A stretch of DNA of 64,000 nt. Origin: an uncultured virus (IMG/VR IMGVR_UViG_3300034096_001156). Lineage: Duplodnaviria; Heunggongvirae; Uroviricota; Caudoviricetes. The position numbers and the translations under genes are program-made. The first letter of the stretch is position 1. Each line of letters starts with the position of its first letter. Below are positions 35,311 to 58,323 of the stretch, piece by piece. The notes beneath the pieces are model-generated. The model did no database searches, was not told the DNA's origin, and saw only the letters and a program-made list of their open reading frames with translations. The DNA lies in IMG/VR virus record IMGVR_UViG_3300034096_001156. One strand, written 5' to 3'.

Positions 35311-35392
35311 TGGATTGGGCTAGATTTGCACTAGCGTGGAATTACTCTACAGATTTACAGTCTGTCGCCTTCGACTACTCGGCCACCAATCC
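35311..35392 (-). tRNA. tRNA-Tyr(GTA)
   Basis: GGATTGG...ACAGA-CTGTAAA-TCTGT, long variable arm, CCAATCC-A; atypical T-loop TGCAAAT. Confidence 0.85.
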
Positions 35393-37146: not shown

Positions 37147-37345
37147 TACTTAACAAGTCAAGCCGATTGTTACCCAGTCTCCCAGAGTGTAAGCTGCGTA
37201 TAGCCTGCGTTGACTGTTTGCGCGGGTTGCGAGTGGATCGACCTTTTCCTTGTTTTTTTCTTGGGTGTCACTGGCTCGGAGGTCAAAACCAGTAAGGTTT
37301 CGAGGGTTTCTTCGCCAAGTAACAATCGGCTGGACTTGTCAAGTA
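37147..37345. repeat. 27-bp inverted repeat (25/27) enclosing the tnpB tail
   Basis: 37147-37173 TACTTAACAAGTCAAGCCGATTGTTAC vs reverse complement of 37319-37345 TACTTGACAAGTCCAGCCGATTGTTAC. Confidence 0.9.
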
Positions 37346-38873
37346 ATTCCTCCTGCGCTGATTCCTTATCGAAATCCTTCAGAGGCTTAACTTCCCCGGT
37401 ACAAGCCGGGTAGCTTCTTACGAAGTCTGCTTTCCCTAAGATGTTGATTGCGGCGGCCACATCTCTGGGTAAAGTACATCCACACTCTAAACATTTATGG
37501 GTGCGGGTTGATAAACTTTTTTTAACACGATTGCCACAGCGAGGACAATCCTGACTGGTGTAAGCTGGTTGAACTTTGATAAACTCTCGGTTGGGAGTTT
37601 TCATTTTCGTTTCAAGAAAACCGGTTAATTGTCCTAAACTAGCATCAGCAAAGGATTTATTTAATCCCCCTTTGGCTTTTGCGTTATTGCGTTCGTAGCC
37701 TTTACCGTCTTCTCTTTTTTTCGGTTTAGGTCGTCGCATTAAATTCTTTAAGTTGAGGTCTTCTACGGCTACAGCGCCATGATTTTTGACAATATCGGTA
37801 CTTAGGGCATGATTAAATCCTTTGCGTTGTCTTGCTATTTTTTCGTGAGTTTTGGCAACTTTAGCACGAGTTTTAGCGAGATTTTTGCCGTTTTTATTTT
37901 CCCCTGCTTTATACTGTCTAGCGGTTTTTCTTTGCAGTCTTGCTAGTCTTTTTTGCTGTTTTCTATAGTATTTGGGCGGGTCAATTTGTTGTCCGTCGCT
38001 GGTACTAATTATATATTCTAGTCCTACGTCAATACCGATTGCTTTATCGGAATCAGGTAGATCATCTACTTCAAATTCACCAAATAGACTTAGATAATAT
38101 CCCGATGGGTATTTGATAATTGATACGGTAGAGGCTTTTCTGTCACCCCATCGAATGTCTAAAATATTGTTGATAATCTTTAAATCGCCTAATGTTTTAC
38201 TACAGCTACCTATAGATATTTTATCCCCTTTTCTAACAGCGCAATTGCTGATCTCAGAATAAAGAGATTTAATTTTATCTTCTTTTCTTTTAAATCTAGG
38301 AAGTTTTCTGTCTAAATTCTTTTTATCGAGTTTGGTGTAAGCTTTCCAGGAATCAGCAAGCTTTTTTAAAACCCCTTGGACAAAAGCCATAGGGATGTCC
38401 TTGCATAGTTCTGGACATTTTTCTTTTGTAATACAGCCACATAACCCAAAATAATTATCAGATTTTAACCGCCGTTGAATAGGGATATGAACAGGATAAG
38501 AGTAACCTGCTTTTTGTCTTTTTTCTCTAGCTATCTGTATTTTAACTTTTTGCTTGCCAGTTAAATATTTGGGGGTGTAAAGGGGATTAGGAAGGGATTT
38601 ACCTTTTTCGTTTTTCAGGGAGTCAATAAATTGAGGTTTTTTAGCTAAACGACGTTTAACCCGTTTAACTGGTTTTCCTGTTATTTGCTCAAGCTCGTCG
38701 TAATACTTATTAAGCTGATATTCCATCAGTAGCTCTAGCCCAAAATTCCAGACAGCTTTAAGCTCGTCCATCCAGCGATCAATATAGGTTCGCTGAGTGG
38801 CATTAAGGTTAAGTTTTATGTCCGCAATAGTTTTCTTGACTAGCATGGCTTTTATGGATCGACCTTCTTTCAT
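37170..38873 (-). CDS. tnpB: IS200/IS605-family RNA-guided nuclease TnpB with insertions and C-terminal extension
   Basis: N-terminal OrfB HTH-like; RuvC-I IGIDVG, RuvC-II VEDL, CPRCG/CLECG, RuvC-III RDVAAAINI. Confidence 0.9.
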   Translation of the reverse strand: MKEGRSIKAMLVKKTIADIKLNLNATQRTYIDRWMDELKAVWNFGLELLMEYQLNKYYDELEQITGKPVKRVKRRLAKKPQFIDSLKNEKGKSLPNPLYTPKYLTGKQKVKIQIAREKRQKAGYSYPVHIPIQRRLKSDNYFGLCGCITKEKCPELCKDIPMAFVQGVLKKLADSWKAYTKLDKKNLDRKLPRFKRKEDKIKSLYSEISNCAVRKGDKISIGSCSKTLGDLKIINNILDIRWGDRKASTVSIIKYPSGYYLSLFGEFEVDDLPDSDKAIGIDVGLEYIISTSDGQQIDPPKYYRKQQKRLARLQRKTARQYKAGENKNGKNLAKTRAKVAKTHEKIARQRKGFNHALSTDIVKNHGAVAVEDLNLKNLMRRPKPKKREDGKGYERNNAKAKGGLNKSFADASLGQLTGFLETKMKTPNREFIKVQPAYTSQDCPRCGNRVKKSLSTRTHKCLECGCTLPRDVAAAINILGKADFVRSYPACTGEVKPLKDFDKESAQEELLDKSSRLLLGEETLETLLVLTSEPVTPKKKTRKRSIHSQPAQTVNAGYTQLTLWETG

Positions 38874-40265: not shown

Positions 40266-40700
40266 CTATGATCTTACCACTCCCAAAACAGGTACTCGAT
40301 AAATTAGTGCAGGCGGGTATTCATGAATATAGGTCTTCATCACGCCATTTATTGAATCAGCATGGACGTACTCACCATCTCCCAGATAAATCCCCACATG
40401 ACCATTTACTCCTGACTTATAAAACATCAAAATATCTCCTTTACACAAATCACCTTCAACTCTATCTAGTAACCGATCAAGGAATTTGACTAAGAAGTTA
40501 TTCCGGGGAATCCGTTCGTAGTTTTCAATAATGAAATCATGGGGCAAGAATCCGACTTCAATCCCTACGCCAGCGATAAATCCTACACAATCGGTTCCAA
40601 TCCCTTTAAGCGATTGACCATGAAACCAAGGAGTACCGAGCCATTCAAGAGCTTCGGTAACAATTTGATTACCCAAAGAATCGTTTTTTAGTTCGTTCAT
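40266..40700 (-). CDS. NlpC/P60 tail-associated peptidase
   Basis: WLGTPW...DCVG...HVGIY...HA. Confidence 0.88.
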   Translation of the reverse strand: MNELKNDSLGNQIVTEALEWLGTPWFHGQSLKGIGTDCVGFIAGVGIEVGFLPHDFIIENYERIPRNNFLVKFLDRLLDRVEGDLCKGDILMFYKSGVNGHVGIYLGDGEYVHADSINGVMKTYIHEYPPALIYRVPVLGVVRS

Positions 40701-43700
40701 TTTGTGTATTTTCCCGTTCTTTCAATTGATTCAAACTATAACCCATATCATTCCGTGATTCTACAGTCACATTATTGGTGTTATTAATTACCAAAGACTG
40801 ATTAGAGCTATTGTTATTTGAAGTTGTGGAGTAATTAGGCTTACCCCCGACAAATCCCCCATTAGCATAGTTCTTAATAGGAGCATTATTTCTGTAGTCT
40901 AGATATGCTTCTGTTTCTTTAGGGTTAAGAACCAATTCGTCTTCATTAGCTACGATCAAGCGAGGTTTTCGGCCTCCCGACATTGCTCGTTCGCGCTGAA
41001 AAGCTGAAATGATATTTTTCTCTATCGGAACATTGGCATCTCCAACTTTCCCACCATCACTAAATAGGCTGAATCCTGTACCTAGAGAAAAGGCAGAAGC
41101 CGGAGCAGAAGCAAAGCTAGAGGCTCCTATACTACCAAGTGACCCAATCGAACCAAGTCCGCCTAGTCCCCCACTAAAAATCCCTGTTATTCCACTAAGT
41201 AGCCCGTTAAATAAGCCACCTCCGCCACCGCCACCAAAAATAGAAGAAAAGATGTTACCTGCTGGTTTAAAGATACTGTTTAGGGCGTTAGTGAAGAAAT
41301 TGCCTACTGGCCCGATGATTGCATTAAATAGCGACTCAAAAGCTTGAGTAATTGGCTTTGTAAATCCATCGATAGCAGAAGTTAGGGCATCAATAGCAGG
41401 CTTGGTAATACCCTCAACAAATTTTGTCATAATATTTAATCCAAGACTACTAAAAGCTGATCCTATTCCTTTTCCTTCTCTAATATCAGAGAAAAAGCTT
41501 TCAGCTGCGCCACGATTCGGAGAGGCATCTAATGCTACTCGCTCTAATCTTAATTCTGCAAGTTTTTCCCATTCTGATCGGATATTAGCTACAAAATCAG
41601 CGTATTGTGGTAAGTCTTTGTAAGGTTCTAAATAATCCTCTAGTTCCTCTTTTTCTTTTTGTAGGCTAATACGTTCGGCAAGGATAGCAGAATCATCAAA
41701 TAAAGTCGGTCGAGACTGAAATTCTAGTTGCGTTCTTTGGATAGTTAAATCATTTAACCGATCACGAATGCTCCTGACTGTATCTCTGGTTTTTCTAAAT
41801 GATGCTTCTAAGGTAGCTACTCCCTGATTCTTGCCTAATTGTTCAATCGCTTGATCAAGAATTGCTACCTGTTTTTTAGCTAATTCAGCGTTTTTAGCTA
41901 AAGCATCAATACTATCTGTCATTTCTTTGATAAATTCAGGGGGGAGAGCTATACCTTTTCTTTGAAATTCTCCTAAGATTTCTTTTATTGCGTCGCTGTA
42001 TTTTTGTTGAGCCTCAGCATTTAAAAGTAAAGTCCGTCGCTGGTCTTGCAAGGATTCAATCTGAGAGCGATATTGACGAGAGACTTCTGTAGCACTCTTA
42101 TTAATTTCTTCTTGTACTGTCAGATACCCTTTAGAGTTGATAGTCAAATCAGCGACATTCTCGGAAGCATCTCTTAAAGTGCGTTCTAATGCACGGGCAT
42201 CTTCCTCTTGTTGCCGTCTAAATTTCATTGATCTGTCAAGAGCATTGTTTAGATTTTGTTGCTCTTCTAGCCGTCTTGAAAACTCCTCAGCGTTTTGGTT
42301 GGCTGTTTCAGCGTTGCGAATTTGATCAGCCGCTGCGCCAAGATTACCTGTAGGAAGATCAGGAACGGGCGGTAAATTAGGACTCTGGAAGTTAATCGGA
42401 TTGTCTTTAGGAACCGGTGGTAAATCGGCATCCCAGAAGTTATCTTGATTTTGATTAGGTAAAGTCGGTAATTGGGCTATAGGTGGGGGACTACTAAATT
42501 CTGGACCACCTTTTCCTTCTTTTGTTTCTTCTTTTGTTAAAACACGGGGAGGTTGTAAAACAGGAACAGAAGTGGGCAAGGGGACAGGAGAAGGGTTAGG
42601 GGTGGAGTCTTTAATGGATTGGCTAATTGCATTAGTAGCATTAGTTATTATTGTTCGATTATTTAGTTGATTGCCGTTAATGTTTGCATAAGCAGTTACA
42701 ATATATTCTTTCCCATTAATGTTTACCAGTCCAACGTTACCAATAACTTTAGAGTTATTTCCAATTTTTCCGCCGATTTCATTATTGTACTTAAAATTTC
42801 TTGTTTGCCTCAGAGATTGTTCAGCTAATTGACTTGCAGGATTTTGATCTTTAATTAAAGACTGCATAGCTAACGTTACGTCTTGTGCTGTTGAAATGTT
42901 TGGAGTTCCACTGCCTGGTATATTTAAATACCTAGAAATAGTAGTGTTTTTATAAACTTCTTTTTTGGCTAATTCTGTAGCTCTGGTTAGCCCACCTAGC
43001 CGATCAATTAAAACATTAGTTGCCGTATTATCTGACTTTTCCAGCATTAACTGTATTAACTGTTCAACTGTTCTAACTTGATTGGCTTTTAATTGTCCGT
43101 GTGGATCAACCAAAGGCGATTTTATGGCGATAGCATCTTTTAAGGAAAGTTTTCCGCTTGCTATTTCTTTGGCAATCAAATCAGCAATAATAACTTTAAT
43201 TGTACTAGCTGGCGACGCTGGGGGTGTTTGAGCATTTTTAGAATATACAGTTTTTCCGCCAACTTCTTGAACTAAAACAGATTGAATATTTTTTGGTAAT
43301 CTGTTGGTGATTTGTTGCTGAACTGATGGAGAAGGGTTAGGGGTAGAAATTGATGGAGTGGGTGAACCGCCTTGATTTCTTCCGAATTGCCGAAGAAATT
43401 CCTGGTAATACTGCATAACGATCGCCACATCTTTAACAGTACCCTTGGCTAATTGACCATTTCTAACATTTCCTGGTCCCGCTTTGTAAGCTGATAAGGC
43501 TAACTCAATATTGCCGTTAAATCGCTCAAGCATTTTAGCAAGATAAGTTGCGCCGCCAATTAGATTTTCAGTAGGATTAAGGGGATTTACTCCTAACTCT
43601 TTGGCAGTGTCAGGCATTAATTGGCTAAGTCCCATTGCACCTGCCGAACTCTCATGTATCTGAGTAGGATGATTGGGATCCATGTGATGGAAACTTGATT

Positions 43701-46700
43701 CTTTTTTAATTAAAGCGGCAAAAAGAAGCGGATCAATGCCAACTTGTCTAGCCGCTCCTTCAATCAAAGAAGCAAAAGGAACATTGGGCATCCCTCGGCG
43801 CTGAGTATTCCCCGGAGTATTTACCCGCGCATTTTTAATAGAGGTTAAATCAGCGATCGAGTCGAGGTGCAAGAATTTCAGGAGTTCACCAGTGGGTAAA
43901 GTCAGTTCCACGGTATTGCCGCCACTTTCAGTAAAAAAGCTTCGTGCGTTAGACGCTGCCCCGCGAAATTCCAGAGGGGTTCCTTGTGGGAATCCAAAAT
44001 CAAACGCTAAGTGATTTTCAGAAGCTCCCGGCACGGGTCTTCGGCGCGGACCATAGCCGCTAGTAATTTTGTCGAGTTGCTCACTTAAAGGCTTGCCATC
44101 CACATAGACTTGGGAGAAAAATTCCATTAAGCGAGCCTTGCTCATGACATTTCCTTTGGCATCTTGTCCCGCTAAATGCAGGTGAGGACCGTTGCCGATT
44201 CCTGTCCTACCTATTTTTCCTAAAGCGAATCGCCCCGACGCTACAGGAGCGGGGATGAAATTACTAGGTGCTGGTAGTATCAAACCTTCCTTAGCTTCTC
44301 TAATTGCCTCCGCAGTTTCTTCTATACTTTTTACTAAGTCTTCTCCAGAAGTCTTGATATTTTTGGGAATAGCTATTAACTCAGAATTGATTAATTTAAT
44401 TGGCTCTGGAAGTGTATTGAGATTTGTGACAATATCCTTGATTGATTGGGGAATAAAGCCTAATTCTTTATTGGTTTGTCGGATTAAATCAGCTAGAGTA
44501 CGATTGAGGTCTTCCTGAGTCCGTTTAATATCTTCAATCGTTCTTAGTCTATTTCTTTCAGCCTCTTGCTGTTGCTCTTGTAAGTTACGAATATTTCTTA
44601 GAGTAGAGATATAGGAAGTTTCTATCTCCTCGGTTCGAGATTGGAAGGTGCGTCCGCGACTGGCAAGGTCAGCTTGTCCCTGCACAAATTCTAGGAAAAT
44701 GTCACCTAATTCTTTGCCAGCGTCGCTTGTACCGGGTATCAATAACCGATTTTTAACTTGCTGTACCCTGATTCTATCAGTCGTATCCAGTAACTGATTT
44801 TGGGCATTTAAGAGGTTCTTATCGAGTTCTCTGACTAAATCACTGTAACTTTCAGATAGGGAGCGATTCTCTTTAAAAGCTGACAGTTGAGCGTCTTCAA
44901 TCTGTCTTCTGTAATCCTCAATCTGACGATTAAAGTCGATTATCTGACGGTCAAGGTTGCGGTAGTAGTTTTGTATTTGCTCTTGCTGATCTCTTAAAGA
45001 TAGTTCGGTTTCAGCTATTTGCTGTGTGATATTTGCAATAGCTGTTTTTACTGCTAAAGGATCATCTACGTTTAATACTAATTTTTCTTGCTCTAAGGCT
45101 AATTGATTATAAAGAGCCGCCAAGTTTATCTTGGTTTGCTCTAGTCCGTAGCTAATATTTTGACTAGAGGAGGTTTTATTGGCTAGATTAGCGAGTTGTT
45201 CTGCTTTAACAATTTCTCCACTAGCCTGTTTTTCTTGTATTTGTCTTTTCTTTCTTTCGACAATAATCTCTCGACTAATTTGCTGAATTTCTTTCTCAGT
45301 GTTTAAAATATCTCGTCGAGCAGTTGCGTATTCTTTAGCCTGATTTAAAATAGCTCTTAAAGCAGCGTTATCTTTTAGGTCAGATTCATACTGATCCATT
45401 ATTTGCTGAATAGCATCAGGAGAAAGTAAATTTTCAGCAATGGCTTCACCAAAGCTCGCTACATTTAGCTGTTCTAAGTCTTCTTTAAAGTAAGTGCTTA
45501 AAACTTTATTGGCAGACTTAGATAGCCTTTCGTTTAAAGTATTAGAGATAGAGTTAGCTGAATTACCTAAAGTGGCGATACGCTCTTTAGCAGTCTGTAA
45601 GCTTTCTTCTTGAACTTTAACATTAAACTGAAATTCATTAATTTTCCCTGATGCAAATTGTTGATTTAATCCAATTGAACGACTTAAACTATTTCCTTCA
45701 TTAGCAAAATTGGCATTAGCTCTTGTTCTTATAGCAAGATCAAAGGCAACTTGTAATTTTCTATATTCTTTTTCTTGGTCTTTCAAGACTTGTAGATAAT
45801 CTTGTTCCGCTTTTTTTAGTTGACCAATTATAGTCAAGAGGTCTATTTTACGTTGTTTGTAAGCAATATCGGTTATATCTTTATTCTTAAAGCTTTGCTC
45901 TAACGATGCTAACGCTATCTCATATTGTTGAAGGTCAGCAGTAATTCTTGACCCAACAGGACCTAACTTTTTATTGATTAGTTCCTGTTCTTGCTTCATT
46001 AAATCCTGCTCTCGCTGGTTAAATTTAGATACAGATCGGTCGTTTCCTTTTGCGCTTGCAATTGTTCTTTCTGCTCTGACTAAAGCTAAATTATTTCTGA
46101 TTTCTTGTAATTCAGATGAAAATTGCTTACTACCTGAAAAATTAGATAAAGTTTTTTGATATTCTTTAAGATTCCCAACTCCAGTAGCCAGAGATTTATC
46201 AATGTTTTCTAGTCCTTGTCGTAATTCTAATAGTGACATAAGCCATTTAGAATTATAAACAATCCCTAGTGTTATAACATTAAAAAACTTTTCTCCTCCA
46301 GACAATTCCATGTCAGGCAAAAAGCTTGTTAAGCCTTTGCGATTACTGTTATCGGTTTTGTTTTGCCAAGCATCAAGAGCTTTTTTAGACTCTTCTAGGG
46401 TTCTTACAGCTTGTTTTAGTTCTTCGCTACCAGCATTTAATGCGTTATAAACAAATTGAATACCAGTTATCACCGCAGTAGGAATAATCAATGCTTTAAT
46501 TAATCCTATTCCTGCTAAAGTAGCAAGGTTTATAGATACTTTTAATCTACCCATGGCTGTAGCTGTAGATAGAGATGCTACTCCGGCAGTTTGTAAGGAT
46601 GCACTCATAGCAGCACTGGCAACGGCTCCTAACCGACCAGCTGCCGCAAATTGCATGACTGATTTTCCTAAGAATCCCATGACTGACAGTAACCCTGCGG

Positions 46701-49700
46701 CTCCCACTGATGCCACAGTCCCTAGATTGTCATTTAAGGTACTTAAGCCGGCATTTAATGCCTGTAAAGCAGGGTAAGCGACTACTCCAATTTTTTCCCC
46801 TAACTGCATTTGAAGCTGTTCGGTATTGTTCTGGAATCGAGAGATTTCCGATTGTAAAGTTCCGGTAGAAAGAGAAAGACCTCCAGCACTCATCCGTTTA
46901 TATTCAGCCGCTAGTCGAGGTAAAACATCTTGTACCAAGAGATTGCCTGCTGATGCTTGTTGATAAAATTGAGCAGTGGTTAAGCCCATTGATCGGGCGG
47001 CTACATTTAAAGCGTCGTTTAATCCTCCTGACTCGCTCAATTGCTGCGTGAATTCTTCAACGGAAACAACAGTTCTAGAGGCCATTTGCCCAATAGCTCT
47101 AAAAGATTCAGCTTGCTGTTGGGTATTGGTTTGTCGCGCCGATAATGCTTCTTGGAATCCTTCAAAAATATTATCTGCCTGCGCTTGTAGTGGAGAATCA
47201 GTAGTAAGTAATTTGAATTTGCTATAAGCAATAGCGGATTCTTTAAAGGATATTCCTAATCTGTCAGCCCTTGCCACTAAAGCGTCAAGAGATTGTTCTA
47301 CATTGCCTACACCGGCAAGATTTAAATTTAATTTAATTCTTTGTAACTCAGTAAAAGCAAGTAAAGAATCAGTAACAGCTTGTTGAATCCTAAAAGGAAT
47401 ATCGTCAATAGCAAAAAATAGAGGTCGTAATAAAAATTCTGCTCCTTTGAAAAGAGCAAATCCCCCAATTGCCGCTATAGCACCTTTACGAAGATTAACC
47501 ATACCTCCTGTAGCGGCATTAAGTTCTTGGTCGAGAGTTCTGAGTGCTTTGCCACCAACCGAGAGGAAATTAATAAATCCGTCCGCTTGGGCAATAACAG
47601 CTTTTAGTCCGCTCACAATGCCGTCTGTAAAACCACTAGAAACGCCCGCTTTTTCAATACTATCGAGAGCGTTGAAAATGTTGTCTCGTTTTTTATTCCA
47701 GTCGTCAAGAATTTCTTCTCTTGTTGTTTTTGGACGAGCGATGACGGTAGCTCGCTTCATCACTTGAAAAGCGCGGGGAGAAGCGAAAATTCCCGTGTTC
47801 ATCGAGCCTTGAATCTCGTTGATAGCCGCTAGGCGTTCCCCTCGGCCTAGCCCCATTTCTTTAACAGCTTGAAGGATCGCTTTTCGGGCTTCTTTTGACC
47901 TCATGCCGACAAAGAAAGTAAAATCGCTTACTTCTTTATCAAATTGAGTCTCTAGCCTTAATCCGAAGCGAATATGACGCGCCCCTAACGCTAATCCTTC
48001 ATAAAAAAACCGCATTGCTTTCATCGCTTTTTTAGATGGCGAAGCATTCCCCAATCCTTTATTTGTTGCGTCGATAATTCCAATCGCAACATCTAAAGCG
48101 TATTTTTCGCTATTATTATTTTGTAATCCAATATTTAACCCCTTGATATAATTTAACCCAGACTGTCTGCCCTCACTGGAAAATATCGAACTAATCGCTT
48201 CAAGGTTTTTTGCGAATACTGGAACGCCAGCACTTAAAGAAGATGCAATAACTTCAATGAGTTTGCGTCCATAAATACTGTACTTTTCTTCTATATCGCC
48301 TAAATTAATACCTAAAAAATCAGACGGATCAATTTTGCCAGTAGTTTGAACCTCAAGGTATTCAAGTATCTCATTAGGTCTGCGATTGTATTGGTCTGGT
48401 GTAAAGCTAGACAAAGGATTTGTTATTATCTCGCTTGGATTTCTCCAAAAAGCACCAGAGTCACCTCTAGTAAATGTTGATCGGTTGGCAATTTTTGCTA
48501 TATCGAGCATTATTTCAGCATCGCCATAGTAATCATTTCCTTTGATCGGTTCGGAAAAAGAGTTAATTGCGCTATAAGCAACAGGTTCTTTGAAAACTTG
48601 TTTTTCAAAATCAAATCTGTCTCTTCTTAAACTCCATTGATTAAAGGTAGGGTCTATTCCTTGTGTTAAAATAGCTTGGAGATTTGCAAAAGCTGTTTTA
48701 TGTCCAGCGTAAAAATTAGATAATTGCTTAAGTCTAATACTAGCAGAAGCTAACGCATTTTCCGATGGCAAGCTTGATTCAATTAATCGTGTAGGGGTAG
48801 GATAAGAAATAATATCATTTTTTGGGGGTTCAACAGGAGTAAAAGTTTTTGATAGAGGGAATTTGCTTAATTTTTTTTCTAGTAGCCCGTCAATTGGTTT
48901 ACCTTCCCACCCCATCATTTTCGCTTCAACAGCTAAATCTTTTAAGTTAGGAATATTTACATCAAAATAAGATTGAATAATTTTTTCAATATCGCCAAGT
49001 GATAAACCTGATTCAAATCCTTTAACAACTTCATTAGCTAAACTCCGAAAATCAAAAGAAGAAATTCCTTTTTCTATTCCAATTGCCACACCTTTAATTA
49101 GGTTTTCTCCCGCTTCTTCCCCCTTCCAAGATGGTGAAGCATTTCCCAGCCCTTTATTTGTTGCATCAACTATTTTAAGAGCGTTTTGATAGGCGATGTC
49201 GCTTGCGCTAGTATCTTTTAATCCTTTAGCTAAACCTTTGTTGAGATTTTTCCCTGACTCCAAACCACCTTTAGCAAGAATTTGTGTCTGTAAATTATCA
49301 ACTGACTGTAAAAAGCCACTTAATGATTTATTAATATTTGTTGTGTTAAATTCAGGATTAGCTCTTAACGCTGTAATTCCCTTTTTAACTTTTTCTAATT
49401 GAAAATAAAGACGTTCTAAAGATTGGATATCTTTAGTAGTATTAATTTCTTGACCAATGTTTTTTATGCCAATGCCAATTCTCTTAGTAAAATCAGCAGG
49501 AATTTCTGTAGATGCAATCTGGAATCCACTAAGTTCTTTTTTTCCTAATTTTGTTCTATCACTTGCTTTTGTTGTTAGTAAAAGTCGAGTTAGTTGATCA
49601 GGGTTAAATTTTTCAGTCAACGATTTCCATATTTCCTCTTTTCTGGCTCCTGCTCCTGATGCTGGTACGTCAATTCCCTGATTTCTGGCCAATCCTCGTA

Positions 49701-52700
49701 ATTGTTTTACCGTGTAATATTCTGGGTTAATTGCCTTGATGTTAGCTGGAATAGGATTACTTACTGGGAAGACTCTCTCATCGAAATATGGAGTTATTTC
49801 AGTGGTAATCAAAGAATCAGCTTTATTCTTTGCCGCTTTTAATGCTTTCTGGGTTTTACCCTCAATTTTTTGCTGTTCTTCTTTGCTAATTAATTTAGGG
49901 ACATTACTGGTAGCCGCTCCCAAGAGTTTCTTAACACCTTCACCGGCCATTAACGCCGATCCAGCAACTGCTCCCCCCTGCGATAGGACGCTGATAGTGC
50001 CGTTAGTTATTTCGGTTACAAGCTGCACTACTGCTTCCGTTAGCTGTTGCCCCACTCCAAACGGCAAGCCGCTAAAAGCTTGAGTCATTTGTGTGGCTAC
50101 GGCTTGGATCATTTCCCGACCGCCAGCACTCATCGCCCCTGCAAGAATATCTCGCATAGTATTGACAACCGTGGCATCTAGCCCCATCGGGAGAGCGTGG
50201 AGAGCGGCGGCTCCCATAGCAGCCGTTCCCCCTACCTGAATAGCTTTTTTACCTATTGCAGCACCAGGTAAAGCCATTACTGGACGCTCGATCGCTTTTA
50301 AGACCGCATAAACAACCTGGCCAAATTTAATAACGTCAAGAGATGTGTCTCGGAAAGCTTTTGAAAGTAGAAGGCTTGCTGTTTTTAATTCTCTTACAAG
50401 AGTTAATTGTAGTAATTCTGCAAAATCTTCATTCCCGCTAAGGTGCTGAATTTCTCCCGATTTATCAGGAGTACCAAGTCGTGAAGCTAAAACATCTTCT
50501 AATTTTGATTTAGCTGTAGCAGCTAAATCATTAAGTTTTTGTAGTTGATTATCTAGAATTGGTTGTTCTTTTTTTTGTTCGGGAGTATCTATTTTTGCGA
50601 AAACAGTTTCTTTAGTAGGCAAAGAAAAATCACCAACGATTTGCTTTAATAAAGTTGGTGTATATGAACCTAATGGAATTGCTTCTCCTGTTACTACAGG
50701 GGAAAGAAGAGTTTCATTAATTTCTCTTTTCTGAGGGATAATGGCTGATTTTTGTCTGGCATTAGAATCAGAAACTTGAGTAGCAAAAGGTTTTGAGTAG
50801 CCAGATTGAACTGCGCCTATTATTTTAAAAGGATCCATCAATCCGTAATAGCTAGAATCAATGATTGCTCGCTGAATAGTAGTAATTTTATCGTTAAATT
50901 TATCACTGCTAGTCGGATCAACCTTTGCATTTCCGAGATCAATTGAAGTAATTCCACCTTGTGCAAAAAATACATTCCCTGCAGCTAAATCATTATGAAC
51001 AACACCCATTTCCTGTAAGGATGCTCCAAGTTGTCCTACTTGTCGATATAGAATAGATGCGGCCTTATTAAAACGATTGTGTTCTTTTTTGGCAGACGAT
51101 TGTAATTCTTTGGTTAATACTTTTAGCTCTTTGATTTTAGTCGCATCTTTGTTGTCTATGGCTAACTCTAATGCTTTATTAGCTTCCTGTATTTTTTGCT
51201 GAATTTCTTTGTAAGGACGTGCAATTCGATCAAGTATTTCTTTTAAAGGACGACCTTGTGTTCTTTCAGTAATTAAAGCCTGACCTGGAACTGCTTTGTA
51301 CAATAAAGGAGACAAACGACCTTGTAATTTCTCATAAGCCTTAATTTCATCTTCTGACGCAATTTTTGTCGCTCCTATTGGGTCAAGATCAGTTTTATAA
51401 ACAAGATTATCTGAAAGAAGAGCAACGGCTCCAGACATTCCTGCACCAATTTTTTTGATTTCAGAAATACCAGGAAGAATTTCTTTACCTACGGCGTTAA
51501 GAAGTTTGTTGTAAGCTAAAATAGCTGATTGCTTTTTCAGAAAAATTTCAGGAACAGTAACCTGTAATTGTCTTACTTCTTCTTCTTTTGGTAGTGTTGA
51601 TGTGTCAAGGCGTGTATTTAGAAAACTTGTTAATTCTCCAGAAAACTCATCAACTTCAAAAGTTTTTATACTGTCTTTGGTTTTTTGCGATAGTTTTCCT
51701 CCTGTCTTAATAAATTCATCAGCAACATCAGCTATTTTTTTGTATGCTTCAACAATTTTTTTTGTGTAAGTTTGCCCAAACGTACTTTCTTCAGAAGTAA
51801 ACCATGGTATTGTTTCGGTTCTAATCTTTTCTGTCCGTCTTTTAACTTCGTTAGGCTCTAAATTTCCGGCATACCAGCTAGGAATATTAGCAAGTTTTCC
51901 TGATTTAAATTCTAATAATGCGCTGTTTATACTTTTTGCTTCTTGTTGATACTTTTGATACCCGGCAAAATCTTGAGGATTTTCTGGTAAATTTGCACCC
52001 CCTTGTCTAAATTTTTTAGCTATAAATGGAATTAAAGGTTCCATTAAACTTTTTAAAGCTTGTGACACAGGCTGTAATTCTTTTGTATCAAAAGAAGATA
52101 TAAGACGAAGCCCTTCAAAAAACTTTGCAATAAATCCTTCTACGCTTACGTTAGGACTGCCACTGCTGTATTCTTGCAAGAATCTATGATAAGGTAGAGT
52201 CTTATCAAATTCCCCTGTTTCTTTAAGTGACTTTAATTGTAGAGTCGATCCCAATACTTCATATAGCTTATCGCCGGCATGAACAACTTTTGATTGTTGA
52301 CCTGGGGTCATATCTGGCTGTTCAGCATTAATAGTCTTATAAAATAAATCTAGAAAAGGTTGTTCTTTAAATAAATGTTTTTGGTGGTGATTTGATAGCC
52401 CAAAAGGAGTATTACTTTCAATCGAGTGGAATTGGTTAGTATTGACTCCAATTCCTAATAACTTGGCAAAACCGAGAGGGTCGCCACTCAGTAATGCTGC
52501 ATTAAATCCTTTAGGTGTATTTTGAGTAAAATTAAGAAAGGGATAAGCCATAGCTAATCCGCGTGGCTGCATTCCCAAATATGCTGCTGTTTGAGCATAC
52601 TGAAGGTTATCTGCTCCTCCTAAAGAATAGCTAACAACACTGCCTTTTTTACCCTGTTCTTCAGCTAATCTGGTATTGGCTATTGCTTGCGCTGCGGCCG

Positions 52701-54132
52701 TAGAATAACTGAACGGGTTAATAGCGTTTACTACCTGCCGAAAAGCGTTAATTGCTGTATCTATGGTTTCTCCAGCAGCAAAATCAGGGGCAATCTCAGT
52801 TATTTTATCCCTAATCATTTTTTCTAAAAGATTAGGGTTTTGTTTATCAGTATCAGTTTCAGGATTTTCTACAGGAATAAATCGTTTATTAGGAGCTAAT
52901 AATTCAATTGATTGAACAACTTGTCTGCCACCCTGACCTCCCTTAAATTGCGCTCCTCCAATGACACTAACTACATCTTCCCCCTCTCTTAGTAATGGAA
53001 AACCTGCTTTTCTTTCGTTGTAATATTTTTGGCTTTCTACTGATGTTCTATAAGACCTCATCCCTTGTATAAATTTTAATAAAGGAGCCATTTCTTGAAT
53101 AAAAGAATTAACAAATCCTTTTAATACTTGTGTTTGTGGCTGTGCGTCAACTAAAAACTGAGCCATGGCTTTTTTCCCCGCTTCTCGCGGCTTAATACCA
53201 GGATTTTCCGATTCTATTTTTTGTAATACTTGTTGATAAATTTTATTTAACTCAGAATTTTCTTTAATTAATCTCAGACGCTCCAGTGGTTTATTTGCAG
53301 GCACTAATGCGATTTCTTGTAATTTTTGAAGTCTTTCTGTAGTTTTACCTACTTCGGTGCGAGGAAAAGAAGCTTGTGTAGCTTTTTCTATACTTCCTGA
53401 CCTAAAAAATTCCGATAAAAACGTTTCATATACTTGGTTTTTACCAATTAATTGTTCATCAATTTTTGTTATTGCGGATTTAATTTTTTTAGCTGTATTT
53501 TTAGCTGATGTTACGCCTATCTCTTCTGCAAAGGATTGACCTAGTTTCTCGAAATAACCAGTAACCATGTCATCAAGAACTCGTCCTGCAAGTTTAAAAG
53601 GAGACATTAAAATACGGCCAATTGCGCCTGCAACGCCTCCTTTGCTAGAGGATATTCTAATTTCTGACGATATTCGAGAAGTAGATCGATCAATCGCTTT
53701 CTCTACCCGATCTTGATACCCAGAAAACCGATGCTCAACAACAATTTTAGAAGGTGTTCCTATCTCTACTGAGGTTTTTTTTAATTCACGCAACTCTTGA
53801 TTAAGAGAAACTAATGCGTCATCTTCGGCAAATACTTTAATAGGATTTGCTTTATAAAAATCAACTGTTTTCTTGAGGTCAACTCTTTTTAAAAGTAAAT
53901 GACTGTTTAGCCCATAAAGCTGACGGTCATCGACGCTAACTTTAATTTTTAGTGGAGTCGTGCCAAGTTTAGTAACACGACGCTCTAAGGAAGAAAGCTG
54001 GTCTTTAGCCGATTTGATGCCGCTATCATATTGGGCTGTATTTAGCCCTAGACCGATTTCTAAAGTACCAAGTGATAAAGACATTAGCTTTTCTCCCCTA
54101 CTAATTGAATTATTTCGTCGTATAGTCCGCAA
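40669..54132 (-). CDS. giant multidomain tail tape-measure protein (start probably MSLSLGTL at 54084)
   Basis: Position after tail chaperones; TMP core QMASRTVVSVEEFTQQLSE; Gly-rich C-terminus; embedded enzyme motifs. Confidence 0.9.
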   Translation of the reverse strand: MRTIRRNNSISRGEKLMSLSLGTLEIGLGLNTAQYDSGIKSAKDQLSSLERRVTKLGTTPLKIKVSVDDRQLYGLNSHLLLKRVDLKKTVDFYKANPIKVFAEDDALVSLNQELRELKKTSVEIGTPSKIVVEHRFSGYQDRVEKAIDRSTSRISSEIRISSSKGGVAGAIGRILMSPFKLAGRVLDDMVTGYFEKLGQSFAEEIGVTSAKNTAKKIKSAITKIDEQLIGKNQVYETFLSEFFRSGSIEKATQASFPRTEVGKTTERLQKLQEIALVPANKPLERLRLIKENSELNKIYQQVLQKIESENPGIKPREAGKKAMAQFLVDAQPQTQVLKGFVNSFIQEMAPLLKFIQGMRSYRTSVESQKYYNERKAGFPLLREGEDVVSVIGGAQFKGGQGGRQVVQSIELLAPNKRFIPVENPETDTDKQNPNLLEKMIRDKITEIAPDFAAGETIDTAINAFRQVVNAINPFSYSTAAAQAIANTRLAEEQGKKGSVVSYSLGGADNLQYAQTAAYLGMQPRGLAMAYPFLNFTQNTPKGFNAALLSGDPLGFAKLLGIGVNTNQFHSIESNTPFGLSNHHQKHLFKEQPFLDLFYKTINAEQPDMTPGQQSKVVHAGDKLYEVLGSTLQLKSLKETGEFDKTLPYHRFLQEYSSGSPNVSVEGFIAKFFEGLRLISSFDTKELQPVSQALKSLMEPLIPFIAKKFRQGGANLPENPQDFAGYQKYQQEAKSINSALLEFKSGKLANIPSWYAGNLEPNEVKRRTEKIRTETIPWFTSEESTFGQTYTKKIVEAYKKIADVADEFIKTGGKLSQKTKDSIKTFEVDEFSGELTSFLNTRLDTSTLPKEEEVRQLQVTVPEIFLKKQSAILAYNKLLNAVGKEILPGISEIKKIGAGMSGAVALLSDNLVYKTDLDPIGATKIASEDEIKAYEKLQGRLSPLLYKAVPGQALITERTQGRPLKEILDRIARPYKEIQQKIQEANKALELAIDNKDATKIKELKVLTKELQSSAKKEHNRFNKAASILYRQVGQLGASLQEMGVVHNDLAAGNVFFAQGGITSIDLGNAKVDPTSSDKFNDKITTIQRAIIDSSYYGLMDPFKIIGAVQSGYSKPFATQVSDSNARQKSAIIPQKREINETLLSPVVTGEAIPLGSYTPTLLKQIVGDFSLPTKETVFAKIDTPEQKKEQPILDNQLQKLNDLAATAKSKLEDVLASRLGTPDKSGEIQHLSGNEDFAELLQLTLVRELKTASLLLSKAFRDTSLDVIKFGQVVYAVLKAIERPVMALPGAAIGKKAIQVGGTAAMGAAALHALPMGLDATVVNTMRDILAGAMSAGGREMIQAVATQMTQAFSGLPFGVGQQLTEAVVQLVTEITNGTISVLSQGGAVAGSALMAGEGVKKLLGAATSNVPKLISKEEQQKIEGKTQKALKAAKNKADSLITTEITPYFDERVFPVSNPIPANIKAINPEYYTVKQLRGLARNQGIDVPASGAGARKEEIWKSLTEKFNPDQLTRLLLTTKASDRTKLGKKELSGFQIASTEIPADFTKRIGIGIKNIGQEINTTKDIQSLERLYFQLEKVKKGITALRANPEFNTTNINKSLSGFLQSVDNLQTQILAKGGLESGKNLNKGLAKGLKDTSASDIAYQNALKIVDATNKGLGNASPSWKGEEAGENLIKGVAIGIEKGISSFDFRSLANEVVKGFESGLSLGDIEKIIQSYFDVNIPNLKDLAVEAKMMGWEGKPIDGLLEKKLSKFPLSKTFTPVEPPKNDIISYPTPTRLIESSLPSENALASASIRLKQLSNFYAGHKTAFANLQAILTQGIDPTFNQWSLRRDRFDFEKQVFKEPVAYSAINSFSEPIKGNDYYGDAEIMLDIAKIANRSTFTRGDSGAFWRNPSEIITNPLSSFTPDQYNRRPNEILEYLEVQTTGKIDPSDFLGINLGDIEEKYSIYGRKLIEVIASSLSAGVPVFAKNLEAISSIFSSEGRQSGLNYIKGLNIGLQNNNSEKYALDVAIGIIDATNKGLGNASPSKKAMKAMRFFYEGLALGARHIRFGLRLETQFDKEVSDFTFFVGMRSKEARKAILQAVKEMGLGRGERLAAINEIQGSMNTGIFASPRAFQVMKRATVIARPKTTREEILDDWNKKRDNIFNALDSIEKAGVSSGFTDGIVSGLKAVIAQADGFINFLSVGGKALRTLDQELNAATGGMVNLRKGAIAAIGGFALFKGAEFLLRPLFFAIDDIPFRIQQAVTDSLLAFTELQRIKLNLNLAGVGNVEQSLDALVARADRLGISFKESAIAYSKFKLLTTDSPLQAQADNIFEGFQEALSARQTNTQQQAESFRAIGQMASRTVVSVEEFTQQLSESGGLNDALNVAARSMGLTTAQFYQQASAGNLLVQDVLPRLAAEYKRMSAGGLSLSTGTLQSEISRFQNNTEQLQMQLGEKIGVVAYPALQALNAGLSTLNDNLGTVASVGAAGLLSVMGFLGKSVMQFAAAGRLGAVASAAMSASLQTAGVASLSTATAMGRLKVSINLATLAGIGLIKALIIPTAVITGIQFVYNALNAGSEELKQAVRTLEESKKALDAWQNKTDNSNRKGLTSFLPDMELSGGEKFFNVITLGIVYNSKWLMSLLELRQGLENIDKSLATGVGNLKEYQKTLSNFSGSKQFSSELQEIRNNLALVRAERTIASAKGNDRSVSKFNQREQDLMKQEQELINKKLGPVGSRITADLQQYEIALASLEQSFKNKDITDIAYKQRKIDLLTIIGQLKKAEQDYLQVLKDQEKEYRKLQVAFDLAIRTRANANFANEGNSLSRSIGLNQQFASGKINEFQFNVKVQEESLQTAKERIATLGNSANSISNTLNERLSKSANKVLSTYFKEDLEQLNVASFGEAIAENLLSPDAIQQIMDQYESDLKDNAALRAILNQAKEYATARRDILNTEKEIQQISREIIVERKKRQIQEKQASGEIVKAEQLANLANKTSSSQNISYGLEQTKINLAALYNQLALEQEKLVLNVDDPLAVKTAIANITQQIAETELSLRDQQEQIQNYYRNLDRQIIDFNRQIEDYRRQIEDAQLSAFKENRSLSESYSDLVRELDKNLLNAQNQLLDTTDRIRVQQVKNRLLIPGTSDAGKELGDIFLEFVQGQADLASRGRTFQSRTEEIETSYISTLRNIRNLQEQQQEAERNRLRTIEDIKRTQEDLNRTLADLIRQTNKELGFIPQSIKDIVTNLNTLPEPIKLINSELIAIPKNIKTSGEDLVKSIEETAEAIREAKEGLILPAPSNFIPAPVASGRFALGKIGRTGIGNGPHLHLAGQDAKGNVMSKARLMEFFSQVYVDGKPLSEQLDKITSGYGPRRRPVPGASENHLAFDFGFPQGTPLEFRGAASNARSFFTESGGNTVELTLPTGELLKFLHLDSIADLTSIKNARVNTPGNTQRRGMPNVPFASLIEGAARQVGIDPLLFAALIKKESSFHHMDPNHPTQIHESSAGAMGLSQLMPDTAKELGVNPLNPTENLIGGATYLAKMLERFNGNIELALSAYKAGPGNVRNGQLAKGTVKDVAIVMQYYQEFLRQFGRNQGGSPTPSISTPNPSPSVQQQITNRLPKNIQSVLVQEVGGKTVYSKNAQTPPASPASTIKVIIADLIAKEIASGKLSLKDAIAIKSPLVDPHGQLKANQVRTVEQLIQLMLEKSDNTATNVLIDRLGGLTRATELAKKEVYKNTTISRYLNIPGSGTPNISTAQDVTLAMQSLIKDQNPASQLAEQSLRQTRNFKYNNEIGGKIGNNSKVIGNVGLVNINGKEYIVTAYANINGNQLNNRTIITNATNAISQSIKDSTPNPSPVPLPTSVPVLQPPRVLTKEETKEGKGGPEFSSPPPIAQLPTLPNQNQDNFWDADLPPVPKDNPINFQSPNLPPVPDLPTGNLGAAADQIRNAETANQNAEEFSRRLEEQQNLNNALDRSMKFRRQQEEDARALERTLRDASENVADLTINSKGYLTVQEEINKSATEVSRQYRSQIESLQDQRRTLLLNAEAQQKYSDAIKEILGEFQRKGIALPPEFIKEMTDSIDALAKNAELAKKQVAILDQAIEQLGKNQGVATLEASFRKTRDTVRSIRDRLNDLTIQRTQLEFQSRPTLFDDSAILAERISLQKEKEELEDYLEPYKDLPQYADFVANIRSEWEKLAELRLERVALDASPNRGAAESFFSDIREGKGIGSAFSSLGLNIMTKFVEGITKPAIDALTSAIDGFTKPITQAFESLFNAIIGPVGNFFTNALNSIFKPAGNIFSSIFGGGGGGGLFNGLLSGITGIFSGGLGGLGSIGSLGSIGASSFASAPASAFSLGTGFSLFSDGGKVGDANVPIEKNIISAFQRERAMSGGRKPRLIVANEDELVLNPKETEAYLDYRNNAPIKNYANGGFVGGKPNYSTTSNNNSSNQSLVINNTNNVTVESRNDMGYSLNQLKERENTQNERTKKRFFG

Positions 54133-54533
54133 TCGACTATTATCTGAGTGGCGAAGACTGGCACTTGGCCAGCTTGCATAGCTTCTAACAGAATTTGAGC
54201 GGTTTCTTGATCAAGAAAATATTTTTTATTTTCTTTAAACTGGTAAGGCAGAAAATCACTAGGAAGACTTTGTGACTTAGAACCTTCTTTAGATTGTGCT
54301 ACTAGGTAGGCGTGAACCATGGCAGCAATCTGACTAACCGTACCTGATAGTGAATTAATTTCTTCACATTTGACTTTTTGAATCCCTGAATATTTTTTCA
54401 GGATTAACCAGTCTGGCCAATCTTCCCACTCCTCGATAGATAATCCCCATGCACACCATTTGTAATAGATTTCTTCCCAATTAATGGGGTTAGCAATTGC
54501 CTCTAACCGTGCATTAATTGCGTCATCTATTCG
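54084..54533 (-). CDS. tail assembly chaperone frameshift extension (gpT-like)
   Basis: -1 frame open from AAAAAAC (54539-54533) through ORF 54084-54320. Confidence 0.7.
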   Translation of the reverse strand, partial: RIDDAINARLEAIANPINWEEIYYKWCAWGLSIEEWEDWPDWLILKKYSGIQKVKCEEINSLSGTVSQIAAMVHAYLVAQSKEGSKSQSLPSDFLPYQFKENKKYFLDQETAQILLEAMQAGQVPVFATQIIVDCGLYDEIIQLVGEKS

Positions 54534-55312
54534 TTTTTTTCGTCGTCCTCCGTTGACTCTGATTCTGATTTTTCAGGCTCTGGTTTTTCAGTTTCTGGGT
54601 TTTGCCACTGGGTTATGTCTTGCCAGAGATAGTCTTGATAGAGTTTTACTACCATAAATTGAGACATATCATTAACGTCTTGTATGGTGAAATCAACAGA
54701 AGATTTATCTTTAAGTTTAACTACCCGTCGAGGACTACCTAGAAATTTAGCTAACAAGGCTTTATTGTAAGTTTCATAGGTTGTTTCCCGATCCTTAAAT
54801 AAAGCATTTAATTCATCGAGATAAGGCTCTACAAGTTCTATAGATTCTCTTGTTAGTTCTCTTGTTTTTTTACGGTTGCTTAAAATTGATTGCTGCACGA
54901 TAGCGGCGGTTTCTACTTTTTGTTCTACGCTGTCAGATTTTACCCCGTCAAGGGCATCAACCATGACCTGTTCAATTCGTTCTCGGATCGAACCGTCGTT
55001 AACTACTACTCCTTCAATTTCAGCAGTGGATAGTCCCGTTTTTTGCCCGATAGCTTTAATTTTCTCAAGATAAGCTTTGTCAGCTTTTTCCCGTGCCTCC
55101 AAGTATTTCTTGACTGTTTCATTTTCCTTTGGATTAATCCCGTACCTTTTTAAAAACTTGATACCAATCTCTTCATTTTCTTCTGTAACAATTGCGTCTA
55201 TCTTTTCCAATAAAGCATCATTGTCTTGAATGTAATAAATCCATTCTTTTTTTAAAGGGAAAAAGAATGTTTCATTAAACTTGAATTTACCTAATACGCT
55301 TAAATTCGCCAT
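54527..55312 (-). CDS. tail assembly chaperone (gpG-like)
   Basis: Between tail tube and TMP; acidic end with slippery A AAA AAC before stop. Confidence 0.7.
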   Translation of the reverse strand: MANLSVLGKFKFNETFFFPLKKEWIYYIQDNDALLEKIDAIVTEENEEIGIKFLKRYGINPKENETVKKYLEAREKADKAYLEKIKAIGQKTGLSTAEIEGVVVNDGSIRERIEQVMVDALDGVKSDSVEQKVETAAIVQQSILSNRKKTRELTRESIELVEPYLDELNALFKDRETTYETYNKALLAKFLGSPRRVVKLKDKSSVDFTIQDVNDMSQFMVVKLYQDYLWQDITQWQNPETEKPEPEKSESESTEDDEKNE

Positions 55313-57630: not shown

Positions 57631-58323
57631 CTAATTGTCGCAGACTACCCGAAAACCGAAAGAGTGGCTGCGGATGTCGCGGCGGTCGTAGTAGTAGCGA
57701 ATCGCGGAACGGCAGTCATCAGGATTGCATCCCCAGGAACCGCCCCGCAAATTATCATTCCCATTTTCTATCCAGGCACTGCCATCCGTCGGCGCACCAT
57801 CATAATTATCGTGCCAAGTATTGGCACACCATTCCCAGACATTACCACTCATGTCATAAAGCCCCCAAGCATTGGGCTTTTTCTGTCCCACAGGATGAGT
57901 TTCATCCTGAGAATTTCCATAATACCAAGCGTAATCTTTTAAGTAATCATCAAAATAATCTCCGAAATAATAGTCAGTAGTTGTCCCCGCACGACAAGCA
58001 TATTCCCATTCCGCTTCTGTAGGAAGACGATAATTTTTCCCGGTTAGCTGACTCAATTTCTGACAAAAGGCTATAGCGTCGTCATAACTGACTTGTTCCA
58101 CTGGATTTTGAAGATTATTTTTAAAGTAAGAAGGATTGATTCCCATCACCGCTTCATATTGTGCTTGAGTCACTGGATATTTGCCGATCGCAAAACTGTT
58201 TACTTTAACTTGGTGTTGAGGCGAGTCTACTATCGAAGCATCGCCTATGGTGAGCTTACCAGCTGGTAAGCTCACCATCTCTAGTGTTACTCTCTTGGGC
58301 AGGTTTTCAGTAAATTGGTTCAT
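57631..58323 (-). CDS. FGE-sulfatase (CLec-fold) domain protein
   Basis: YPVTQAQY, RLPTEAEWEYACRAG, NAWGLYDMSGNVWEW, RGGSW, GFRVV. Confidence 0.92.
   Translation of the reverse strand: MNQFTENLPKRVTLEMVSLPAGKLTIGDASIVDSPQHQVKVNSFAIGKYPVTQAQYEAVMGINPSYFKNNLQNPVEQVSYDDAIAFCQKLSQLTGKNYRLPTEAEWEYACRAGTTTDYYFGDYFDDYLKDYAWYYGNSQDETHPVGQKKPNAWGLYDMSGNVWEWCANTWHDNYDGAPTDGSAWIENGNDNLRGGSWGCNPDDCRSAIRYYYDRRDIRSHSFGFRVVCDN

Follow-up and report, generated by a model that had tools for sequence, protein, structure and literature searches.

A giant tape measure protein of a probable cyanophage with wall enzymes behind its ruler and other enzyme-like modules ahead of its core

Gene and module organization

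Tape measure proteins (TMPs) are known to carry wall hydrolases. The TMP analysed here is encoded on a stretch of 64,000 nucleotides from an uncultured virus of the Caudoviricetes (IMG/VR record IMGVR_UViG_3300034096_001156); this whole stretch, a segment of a phage genome in which the minus strand carries nearly all genes, is referred to as the window. A single uninterrupted open reading frame (ORF) extends over positions 40669..54132 of the minus strand and comprises 4,487 codons when counted from a TTG at 54132, as described in an initial annotation that had been made by inspection of the sequence. It is likely that translation starts at the ATG at 54084 rather than at this TTG. The ATG is preceded by the ribosome-binding site GGGGAGAA, overlaps the stop codon of the upstream ORF in the sequence TAATG and yields a product of 4,471 amino acids followed by a stop codon. 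An identical product of this length is present in a public protein collection, where it originates from a contig of 90,280 nucleotides. Residue numbers of the TMP modules refer to the 4,487-codon frame, so that the ATG start corresponds to residue 17. The gene, its modules, which follow one another from the N- to the C-terminus in the order given by the initial annotation, and the genes just upstream are listed below.

40669..54084, minus strand: tape measure gene with its likely ATG start (open frame and identical product on record)
53143..54084, minus strand: N-terminal anchor, residues 17-330, common to sister TMPs and faint in the TMP of the cyanophage CrV-01T
52213..53115, minus strand: probable serine hydrolase, alpha/beta-hydrolase-like, residues 340-640 (VIGGAQF, SYSLGG with Ser503, Asp551, His582)
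50713..51480, minus strand: minimal protein-kinase-like domain, residues 885-1140 (motifs and profile)
49813..50274, minus strand: Gly/Ala-rich, weakly hydrophobic segment, residues 1287-1440, 8% charged
49597..49737, minus strand: HeH/SAP-like motif YTVKQLRGLARNQGI, residues ~1466-1512, conserved, without model match
49063..49326, minus strand: linker repeat 1 with GLGNASPS motif, residues 1603-1690, a recurrent recombination breakpoint
48208..48825, minus strand: orphan module, residues 1770-1975, restricted to near-identical phages
47953..48207, minus strand: linker repeat 2 with GLGNASPS motif, residues 1976-2060
46804..47334, minus strand: TMP_3 core, residues 2267-2443 (Pfam match above cut-off)
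46438..46728, minus strand: two to three transmembrane-like helices, residues 2469-2565
44233..46422, minus strand: long charged, Gln/Asn-rich, Pro-poor stretch, presumably the coiled-coil ruler, residues 2571-3300
43813..44235, minus strand: circularly permuted M23 peptidase, residues 3300-3440 (GPHLHL piece, then TSGYG..NHLAFD, then FLHLD)
43441..43767, minus strand: SLT lytic transglycosylase, residues 3456-3564 (PF01464)
42688..43278, minus strand: PBP-A-type DD-peptidase with class A beta-lactamase fold, residues 3619-3815 (STIK, SDN, KIG)
40672..42525, minus strand: conserved C-terminal region, residues 3870-4487, that includes a hydrophobic, Gly-rich run (~4290-4345)
54084..55312, minus strand: G/GT-type tail assembly chaperone pair (261-amino-acid ORF at 54527..55312 and an open -1 frame)

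Identification as a tape measure protein

The giant ORF encodes a true tape measure protein. Residues 2267-2443 match the Pfam family TMP_3 with E 4e-12 (46.7 bits, cut-off 41), which places the core where it had been proposed, at about 46800-47350 of the window, and the protein also passes TIGR02675 with a score of 21.5 (cut-off 21.35). PHROGs assigns the ORF to a TMP family, and a profile built from the giant TMPs matches six solved TMPs, 8vjh_Q among them with E 1e-27. A frameshift chaperone arrangement of the G/GT type is expected just before a TMP gene. The slippery heptamer A_AAA_AAC (54527-54545, minus strand) is located just ahead of the stop codon of the 261-amino-acid ORF, and the -1 frame beyond it has no stop over about 150 codons and terminates at the start codon of the TMP at 54084; the frameshift site is kept in two relatives (L009 and L010). 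The identity of the protein thus follows from the TMP_3 and TIGR02675 matches above their cut-offs, the matches to solved TMPs and the upstream frameshift chaperone pair.

Peptidoglycan enzymes behind the ruler

Three peptidoglycan enzymes are arranged in tandem 600 residues ahead of the C-terminus. The first of these, at residues ~3300-3440, is identified by its profile as a circularly permuted M23 peptidase. A profile of four sequences matched the solved structures 3slu_A (E 5e-8), 5kqb (2e-7) and lysostaphin (5.7e-4), and all three alignments that were printed consist of two pieces in swapped order, with profile positions 72-145 corresponding to chain residues 227-299 and positions 15-38 to residues 305-328. 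This swapped order points to a circular permutation. The motifs H3319-L-H, NHLAFD and FLHLD are present and either invariant or conservatively changed in four aligned sequences, and the order of motifs departs from the canonical one in that the HxH piece precedes the remainder. The module thus has all elements of known M23 peptidases of the LytM/lysostaphin type (PDB 3slu, 4qp5), i.e., HxxxD, the middle His and HxH (or HxD), but differs from them by the transfer of the HxH strand to the N-terminus. Permuted M23 modules were also found on two other viral contigs with 64% and 32% identity, the latter within an ORF that encodes 2,982 amino acids or more, and M23 modules of canonical order occupy the same slot in the sister TMPs P0010, P0029 and P0040; a literature search for permuted M23 peptidases retrieved nothing relevant.

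The second enzyme is an SLT lytic transglycosylase, for which the Pfam match over residues 3456-3564 reaches E 1.5e-18 (66.9 bits, cut-off 21.3). The segment contains KKESSF, GLSQL and AYKAG, which we take to be the SLT motifs, the first with the catalytic Glu-Ser motif.

The third module, residues 3619-3815, matches Pfam Beta-lactamase2 with E 3.9e-24, and its best solved match is the PBP-A protein Tll2115 of Thermosynechococcus elongatus (2j7v_A, E 1.4e-11, 254 residues, 3590-3843). STIK aligns to STIK, SDN is conserved, and both proteins have Leu at the place of the class A residue Glu166. The window module differs from Tll2115 in that it is embedded in a giant TMP and has KIG, and its activity is a predicted one. 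Its identity as a class A beta-lactamase was rejected in view of Leu in place of Glu166, KIG in place of KTG and the NCBIfam class A lactamase models, whose cut-off of 200 bits is missed by far with 44.9 bits. The PBP-A family is cyanobacterial and close to the class A beta-lactamases. For PBP-A, a DD-peptidase activity with specificity for amidated muropeptides has been described (PMC11189452). The module is therefore read as a PBP-A-type DD-peptidase, i.e., a cross-link peptidase and no resistance enzyme.

The initial annotation had recognized a permuted M23 peptidase, a lytic transglycosylase and a class A beta-lactamase-like domain in this region and had interpreted the C-terminal half as an envelope-breaching set. 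The first two assignments hold, and in the third the fold is correct and the enzyme class has to be replaced. The same C-terminal slot of sister TMPs holds a lambda-type lysozyme, a canonical M23 peptidase, a YkuD-like module, a glucosaminidase or an amidase_3; with three tandem peptidoglycan enzymes in the window TMP and wall enzymes in the sister slot, the reading of the C-terminal modules as an envelope-breaching set is well supported by sequence comparison. An endolysin is encoded separately from the TMP at 11080-11838 of the minus strand (phrog_181, E 4e-36). Since the phage has its own endolysin, the wall enzymes of the TMP would serve entry.

Enzyme-like modules ahead of the core

The N-terminal half had been proposed to contain an alpha/beta hydrolase, a protein kinase-like domain, a Rho-N/HeH-like module and a DUF3626/ADP-ribosyltransferase (ART)-like domain. 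Two of these four calls are retained, the kinase and, as a probable assignment, the hydrolase.

Residues ~885-1140 are identified by motifs and profile as a minimal protein-kinase-like domain. The motifs comprise the G-loop AGMSGA, Lys913, Glu929, His1046-Asn-Asp1048, Asn1053 and Asp1065-Leu-Gly, and the G-loop together with Lys913, Glu929, His1046, Asp1048, Asn1053 and Asp1065 is kept in ~80-90% of the 28-31 aligned sequences (Lys913 in 27/31, Asp1048 in 24/28, Asn1053 in 25/29, Asp1065 in 27/30). A profile of nine sequences retrieved 851 solved sequences at E<=1; among the 60 matches listed, almost all are protein kinases, with MSK1 as the best (5.2e-6), followed by entries such as Bud32 (2.9e-5) and TTK (4e-4). 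Only ~60 residues follow the DLG motif, which indicates a reduced C-lobe. In its small core, retained catalytic loop and DxG and short C-lobe, the domain resembles the minimal kinases of the Bud32/RIO type, which are among the best profile matches. It differs from them by a score of 25.5 bits versus an equivalog cut-off of 246, by a helical insert of ~60 residues before the catalytic loop and by being almost confined to giant, TMP-sized proteins. Membership in Kinase-PolyVal (PF18762), a family in which the catalytic His and Asp are described as separated by an insert (PMC5512222), was also considered and rejected; the window domain gives no match at E<=1, and its H-N-D is contiguous. A second kinase type, the Pkinase module of the sister TMP P0011, has no PDB match at E<=0.01 and stays below the Pfam cut-off.

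Residues ~340-640 probably constitute a serine hydrolase with the motif order and spacing of alpha/beta hydrolases. The segment has a nucleophile elbow of the form sm-x-Ser-x-sm, the triad order Ser, Asp, His and a DPL motif. Gly393, Ser503, Gly505, Gly506, Asp551 and His582 are invariant in all 28 covering sequences of the A1 alignment and in all 59 giant TMPs, of 81 examined, in which a local profile detected the module; a distant subgroup has the textbook elbow GYSAGG instead of SYSLGG. The comparisons with the PDB and by hhalign gave no significant match, and in Pfam the segment has no match.

The other two calls did not find support. The HeH-like motif is located at residue 1473 (window ~49713), in agreement with the proposed position of ~49700, and it is conserved in 15 of 85 sequences; residues 1445-1561, however, match no HeH, SAP, Rho-N or other family model at E<=10, a weak negative for so short a domain. 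The orphan module, corresponding to the supposed DUF3626/ART-like domain, was tested as residues 1770-1985 and has no Pfam match at E<=10, no PDB match and no free-standing homologue of near its length, and in IMG/VR it is found at only 12 loci, each on its own contig, with 95-100% identity. The ART reading was rejected as unsupported after hhalign had given only 0.3-4.7% against the sister TMP P0057, whose PARP and ART-PolyVal modules are genuine.

Cassette exchange, positional sorting and cysteine avoidance

A word-indexed search retrieved 58 giant TMPs of 2,577-5,797 amino acids. An exhaustive search of 1.84 billion proteins with the hydrolase-kinase block (residues 331-1290) yielded 29 representatives, all at E<1e-30. 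Twenty-six of them are proteins of 1,925-5,797 amino acids, in 25 of which the block starts at residue 289-572, and the remaining three are fragments of 377-476 amino acids; an ordinary free-standing hydrolase or kinase was not among the 29 matches.

The giant TMPs exchange whole modules. The nearest relatives, of 5,303 and 3,119 residues, are single open frames and differ from the window TMP by entire modules, and TMPs of near-identical phages differ in length by more than 1,000 residues. With a vocabulary of 19 modules, 39 architectures were counted among 81 giant TMPs, and that of the window TMP was seen once. Breakpoints recur at window residues 1198, 1614-1619, 1686-1706, 1974-1980, 2058-2092 and 2132 and, further towards the C-terminus, at 3300, 3428-3437, 3580-3587 and 3801-3878; several of them fall at Pro-rich linkers or at the repeated GLGNASPS linker unit. 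The TMP of 5,303 amino acids (L009, G002) has two extra insertions, residues 1670-1998 (~330) and 2446-3023 (~580), neither of which has a Pfam or PDB match; one carries a GHNR motif and the other Pro-rich repeats. A ParB-like reading of the extra module with the GHNR motif was dismissed, as it has no Pfam or PDB support.

The modules are sorted by position. In the 69 proteins with a detected core, all 87 instances of wall enzymes (SLT, PBP-A, both M23 forms, lambda-type lysozyme, YkuD-like, glucosaminidase and amidase_3) are located C-terminal of the core and all 124 instances of other modules (hydrolase, two kinase types, ART-PolyVal, PARP, orphan module and HeH-like motif) N-terminal of it, counts that include many close relatives and thus overstate the independence of the instances. 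The hydrolase is the most widespread cargo, being present in 59 of 81 giant TMPs, and sister TMPs hold ART-PolyVal, PARP and Pkinase modules in the N-proximal slot ahead of the core.

Cysteine is avoided throughout. The window TMP contains none in 4,487 residues, and the family as a whole has 17 in 297,274 residues, with 70 of 82 entries free of cysteine (the window TMP being included twice), compared with 158 in 11,830 residues (1.34%) in the other 44 ORFs of the window. Nine of the 17 family cysteines are located in the GSxGC motif of the YkuD-like module, where the residue is presumably catalytic. The enzyme modules share the cysteine constraint of the ruler, which fits domains that would be stored and moved in an unfolded state and refold outside the cytoplasm. 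Compared with the nearest relative, the ratio of nonsynonymous to synonymous substitution rates (dN/dS) is 0.26 overall and 0.07-0.38 in each computable module, the latter with small counts per module.

Proposed delivery and alternative explanations

It appears fairly probable that, in this TMP of a siphovirus of ~90 kb, itself probably a cyanophage, a conserved chassis carries two cassette slots, the wall enzymes being destined for the periplasm and the N-proximal enzymes for the inner membrane or the cytoplasm. The chassis would consist of the N-terminal anchor, the TMP_3 core with its transmembrane helices, the long ruler, which would be helical, and a tip region at the C-terminus; the slot behind the ruler would take up peptidoglycan enzymes, and the slot between anchor and core non-wall enzymes. 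By analogy with pb2 of phage T5, the tail would first release the C-terminal region, including its hydrophobic, Gly-rich run. The three wall enzymes would follow, regain their fold in the periplasm and create a local opening in the wall, after which the ruler and the transmembrane helices at residues 2469-2565 would pass, with hydrophobic segments forming a channel. The N-proximal modules would exit last, just ahead of the DNA, and most likely reach the inner membrane or the cytoplasm, where they could act before phage gene expression. Kinases need ATP, ART and PARP enzymes need NAD, and the periplasm is without ATP. The requirements of the kinase and of the ART and PARP modules of sister TMPs suggest a cytoplasmic or inner-membrane destination, and it is plausible from sequence comparison that the N-terminal modules are cytoplasmic effectors.

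Several points weigh against this interpretation. The presence of the TMP in virions, its ejection and order of exit, its refolding, the arrival of modules in the cytoplasm and their targets are predictions, and no processing protease or peptidase was found. Taken singly, no Pfam or NCBIfam model reaches its cut-off with the kinase domain (in Pfam, 2.8e-4 for APH and 3.9e-4 for Kinase-like, with RIO1 and others also below). The calls of an HeH-like and an ART-like module are not supported statistically, and the PBP-A-type module has KIG in place of KTG. The fold assignment of the hydrolase depends on motifs and weak leads: a search of its profile against the PDB gave nothing significant, with seven of the ten matches at E<=10 being alpha/beta hydrolases aligned at the elbow, and hhalign against Aes of E. 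coli reached 0.2%, no better than an adenylate kinase control. The hydrolase may also act on membrane lipids rather than in the cytoplasm. The positional sorting was counted on relatives that are partly close, as stated above.

A bolder form of the proposal, in which the TMP is a programmable delivery chassis with compartment-sorted slots, is put forward tentatively. The kinase, the hydrolase and, in sister phages, ART or PARP modules would pass through the channel formed by the TMP and arrive in the cytoplasm just before the DNA, where they would disarm host defence or metabolism ahead of all phage gene expression, the cassettes being swapped at linkers and purged of cysteine for unfolded storage and refolding.

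It is less likely, though worth weighing, that all embedded enzymes serve envelope penetration. The hydrolase would then be a lipase or esterase acting on lipids of the outer or inner membrane or on O-acyl groups of the wall, the kinase-like domain would bind or modify an envelope component, and no cytoplasmic effector would be delivered. The Atlas leads for the hydrolase segment, weak at 0.83-0.88, are of the lipase/esterase type (Lipase_3, DUF676, LCAT and DUF900), and the best weak match in hhalign, at 24%, is a cyanophage class 3 lipase. The wide distribution of the hydrolase is also what a core entry function would lead one to expect, and the enzymes known from TMPs are all wall hydrolases. 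However, the kinase retains every residue for ATP binding and phosphotransfer, for which the periplasm would offer no ATP, NAD-dependent ART-PolyVal and PARP modules occupy the same slot in sister TMPs, and the N-proximal slot is strictly apart from that of the wall enzymes.

A role of the N-terminal modules in the producing cell or during assembly, late and before packing, or as stuffing that adds length alone, is improbable. TMP length sets tail length, as in Mic1 with its TMP of 2,572 amino acids and its tail of 400 nm, and both the large length differences between near-identical phages and the TMP of CrV-01T, in whose 4,416 amino acids no enzyme motif was seen by eye (no profile scan was made), would suit such a role. 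Catalytic residues, however, are invariant down to ~25% identity, each computable module has a dN/dS value indicative of constraint (0.07-0.38), and the avoidance of cysteine extends to the enzyme modules, save one catalytic-looking residue, which fits storage in the tube and exit from it. An artefact of assembly or annotation, such as a chimeric contig or a fusion of neighbouring genes, can practically be dismissed: the assemblies are metagenomic and cassette content varies between contigs, but the frame is open over 13.4 kb, the identical product lies on the 90,280-nucleotide contig, the relatives of 3,119 and 5,303 amino acids are likewise single open frames, 12 contigs carry the orphan module with 95-100% identity, and purifying selection is evident throughout.

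Should the N-proximal cassettes indeed be delivered to the cytoplasm, pre-made effectors would have a second way into the cell through the siphovirus tail, with consequences for early host takeover, anti-defence and the control of tail length. The TMP would also provide a natural scaffold for understanding how enzymes survive storage in a tube of 4 nm.

Genomic neighbourhood and host

The TMP gene is directly followed by a gene for a minor tail protein of the NlpC/P60 type:

40266..40700, minus strand: NlpC/P60-type minor tail protein

A gene for a large tail protein, which resembles only proteins of alphaproteobacterial phages (22-28%), is also located downstream. The tail gene block contains a gene for an IS605/OrfB-type transposase of 567 amino acids (37170-38873, minus strand; phrog_506, E 8e-78), and tRNA-Met (CAT) at 34731-34803 and tRNA-Tyr (GTA) at 35310-35392 lie between the tail and replication genes. 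Elsewhere in the window, the minus strand encodes a DNA methyltransferase (8045-9403; phrog_67, E 1e-79) and three tandem paralogues of phrog_23556, a family of unknown function, interspersed with a fourth small ORF (28204-29947).

A megablast comparison of the window with known phages gave no match. Two of its proteins (35434-35979 and 57631-58323, minus strand) match only proteins of Microcystis phages: a hypothetical protein has 75-79% identity to its counterparts in the phages Ma-LMM01 and MaMV, and a small free-standing 'kinase', encoded besides the TMP kinase, has ~53% identity to proteins of Ma-LMM01, MaMV and Mic1. Together with the PBP-A match and the faint likeness to the N-terminus of the CrV-01T TMP, these two shared genes, the best lead to the host, indicate that it is likely a cyanobacterium. 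The host assignment depends mainly on the two shared genes and the PBP-A match, and the sole relative in a collection of species genomes (L012; G001:C205) is a contig of 86.5 kb in a metagenome-assembled genome labelled Crocinitomicaceae. The phage-like size of this contig and its collinearity with the window make it probable that it derives from a phage and was binned with a non-host. The phage would thus probably infect bloom-forming cyanobacteria, in which entry mechanisms are poorly known.

Comparison with known systems

Among cyanophages, Mic1 offers a measure of tail length, as it combines a TMP of 2,572 amino acids with a tail of 400 nm (PMC7156551). At the resulting 0.155 nm per residue, the tail of the window phage would be ~670 nm long if all TMP residues were measured; a BLAST comparison of the two TMPs revealed no similarity. 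Another giant cyanophage TMP is gp064 of the Cylindrospermopsis raciborskii virus CrV-01T (MH636380.1), with 4,416 amino acids. Its first ~130 residues have 29.5% identity to the window TMP (E 9e-6) and its core region 29.4% (E 3e-7), it shares the SPS-type linker motifs and the lack of cysteine, and an IS605 OrfB gene adjoins it. The two proteins differ in that the remaining sequence is unrelated and that inspection by eye, with no profile scan, revealed no enzyme motif in gp064.

Injected proteins of the polyvalent type are known where delivery depends on head packaging or conjugation. These proteins are large, unite domains such as kinases, ARTs, peptidases and lysozymes, often together with a processing peptidase, and have been predicted to be transferred into the cell along with the DNA (Iyer et al. 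2017; PMC5512222). The window TMP may resemble them, as it has several enzyme domains in one polypeptide, and a sister TMP contains an ART-PolyVal module; it differs from them in that no processing peptidase and no MuF-type head-packaging domain were seen. Tape measure proteins do not occur in the main text of PMC5512222, a survey of jumbo phages draws no link either, and no published work that joins TMPs and polyvalent injected proteins was found.

The proposed order of delivery has its model in the TMP of phage T5, pb2, which comprises about 1,200 residues. It is described as metastable within the tube of the tail, from which receptor binding triggers its expulsion; its C-terminal wall enzyme is the first to enter the periplasm, and its hydrophobic segments make up the channel (Linares et al. 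2023; PMC10038345). The window TMP is proposed to resemble pb2 in having a C-terminal wall-digesting domain and hydrophobic segments that would form a channel. It differs in the extent of its cargo: pb2 carries one wall enzyme, whereas the window TMP has three in tandem and, in addition, ~2,100 residues ahead of its core that are taken up by non-wall modules.

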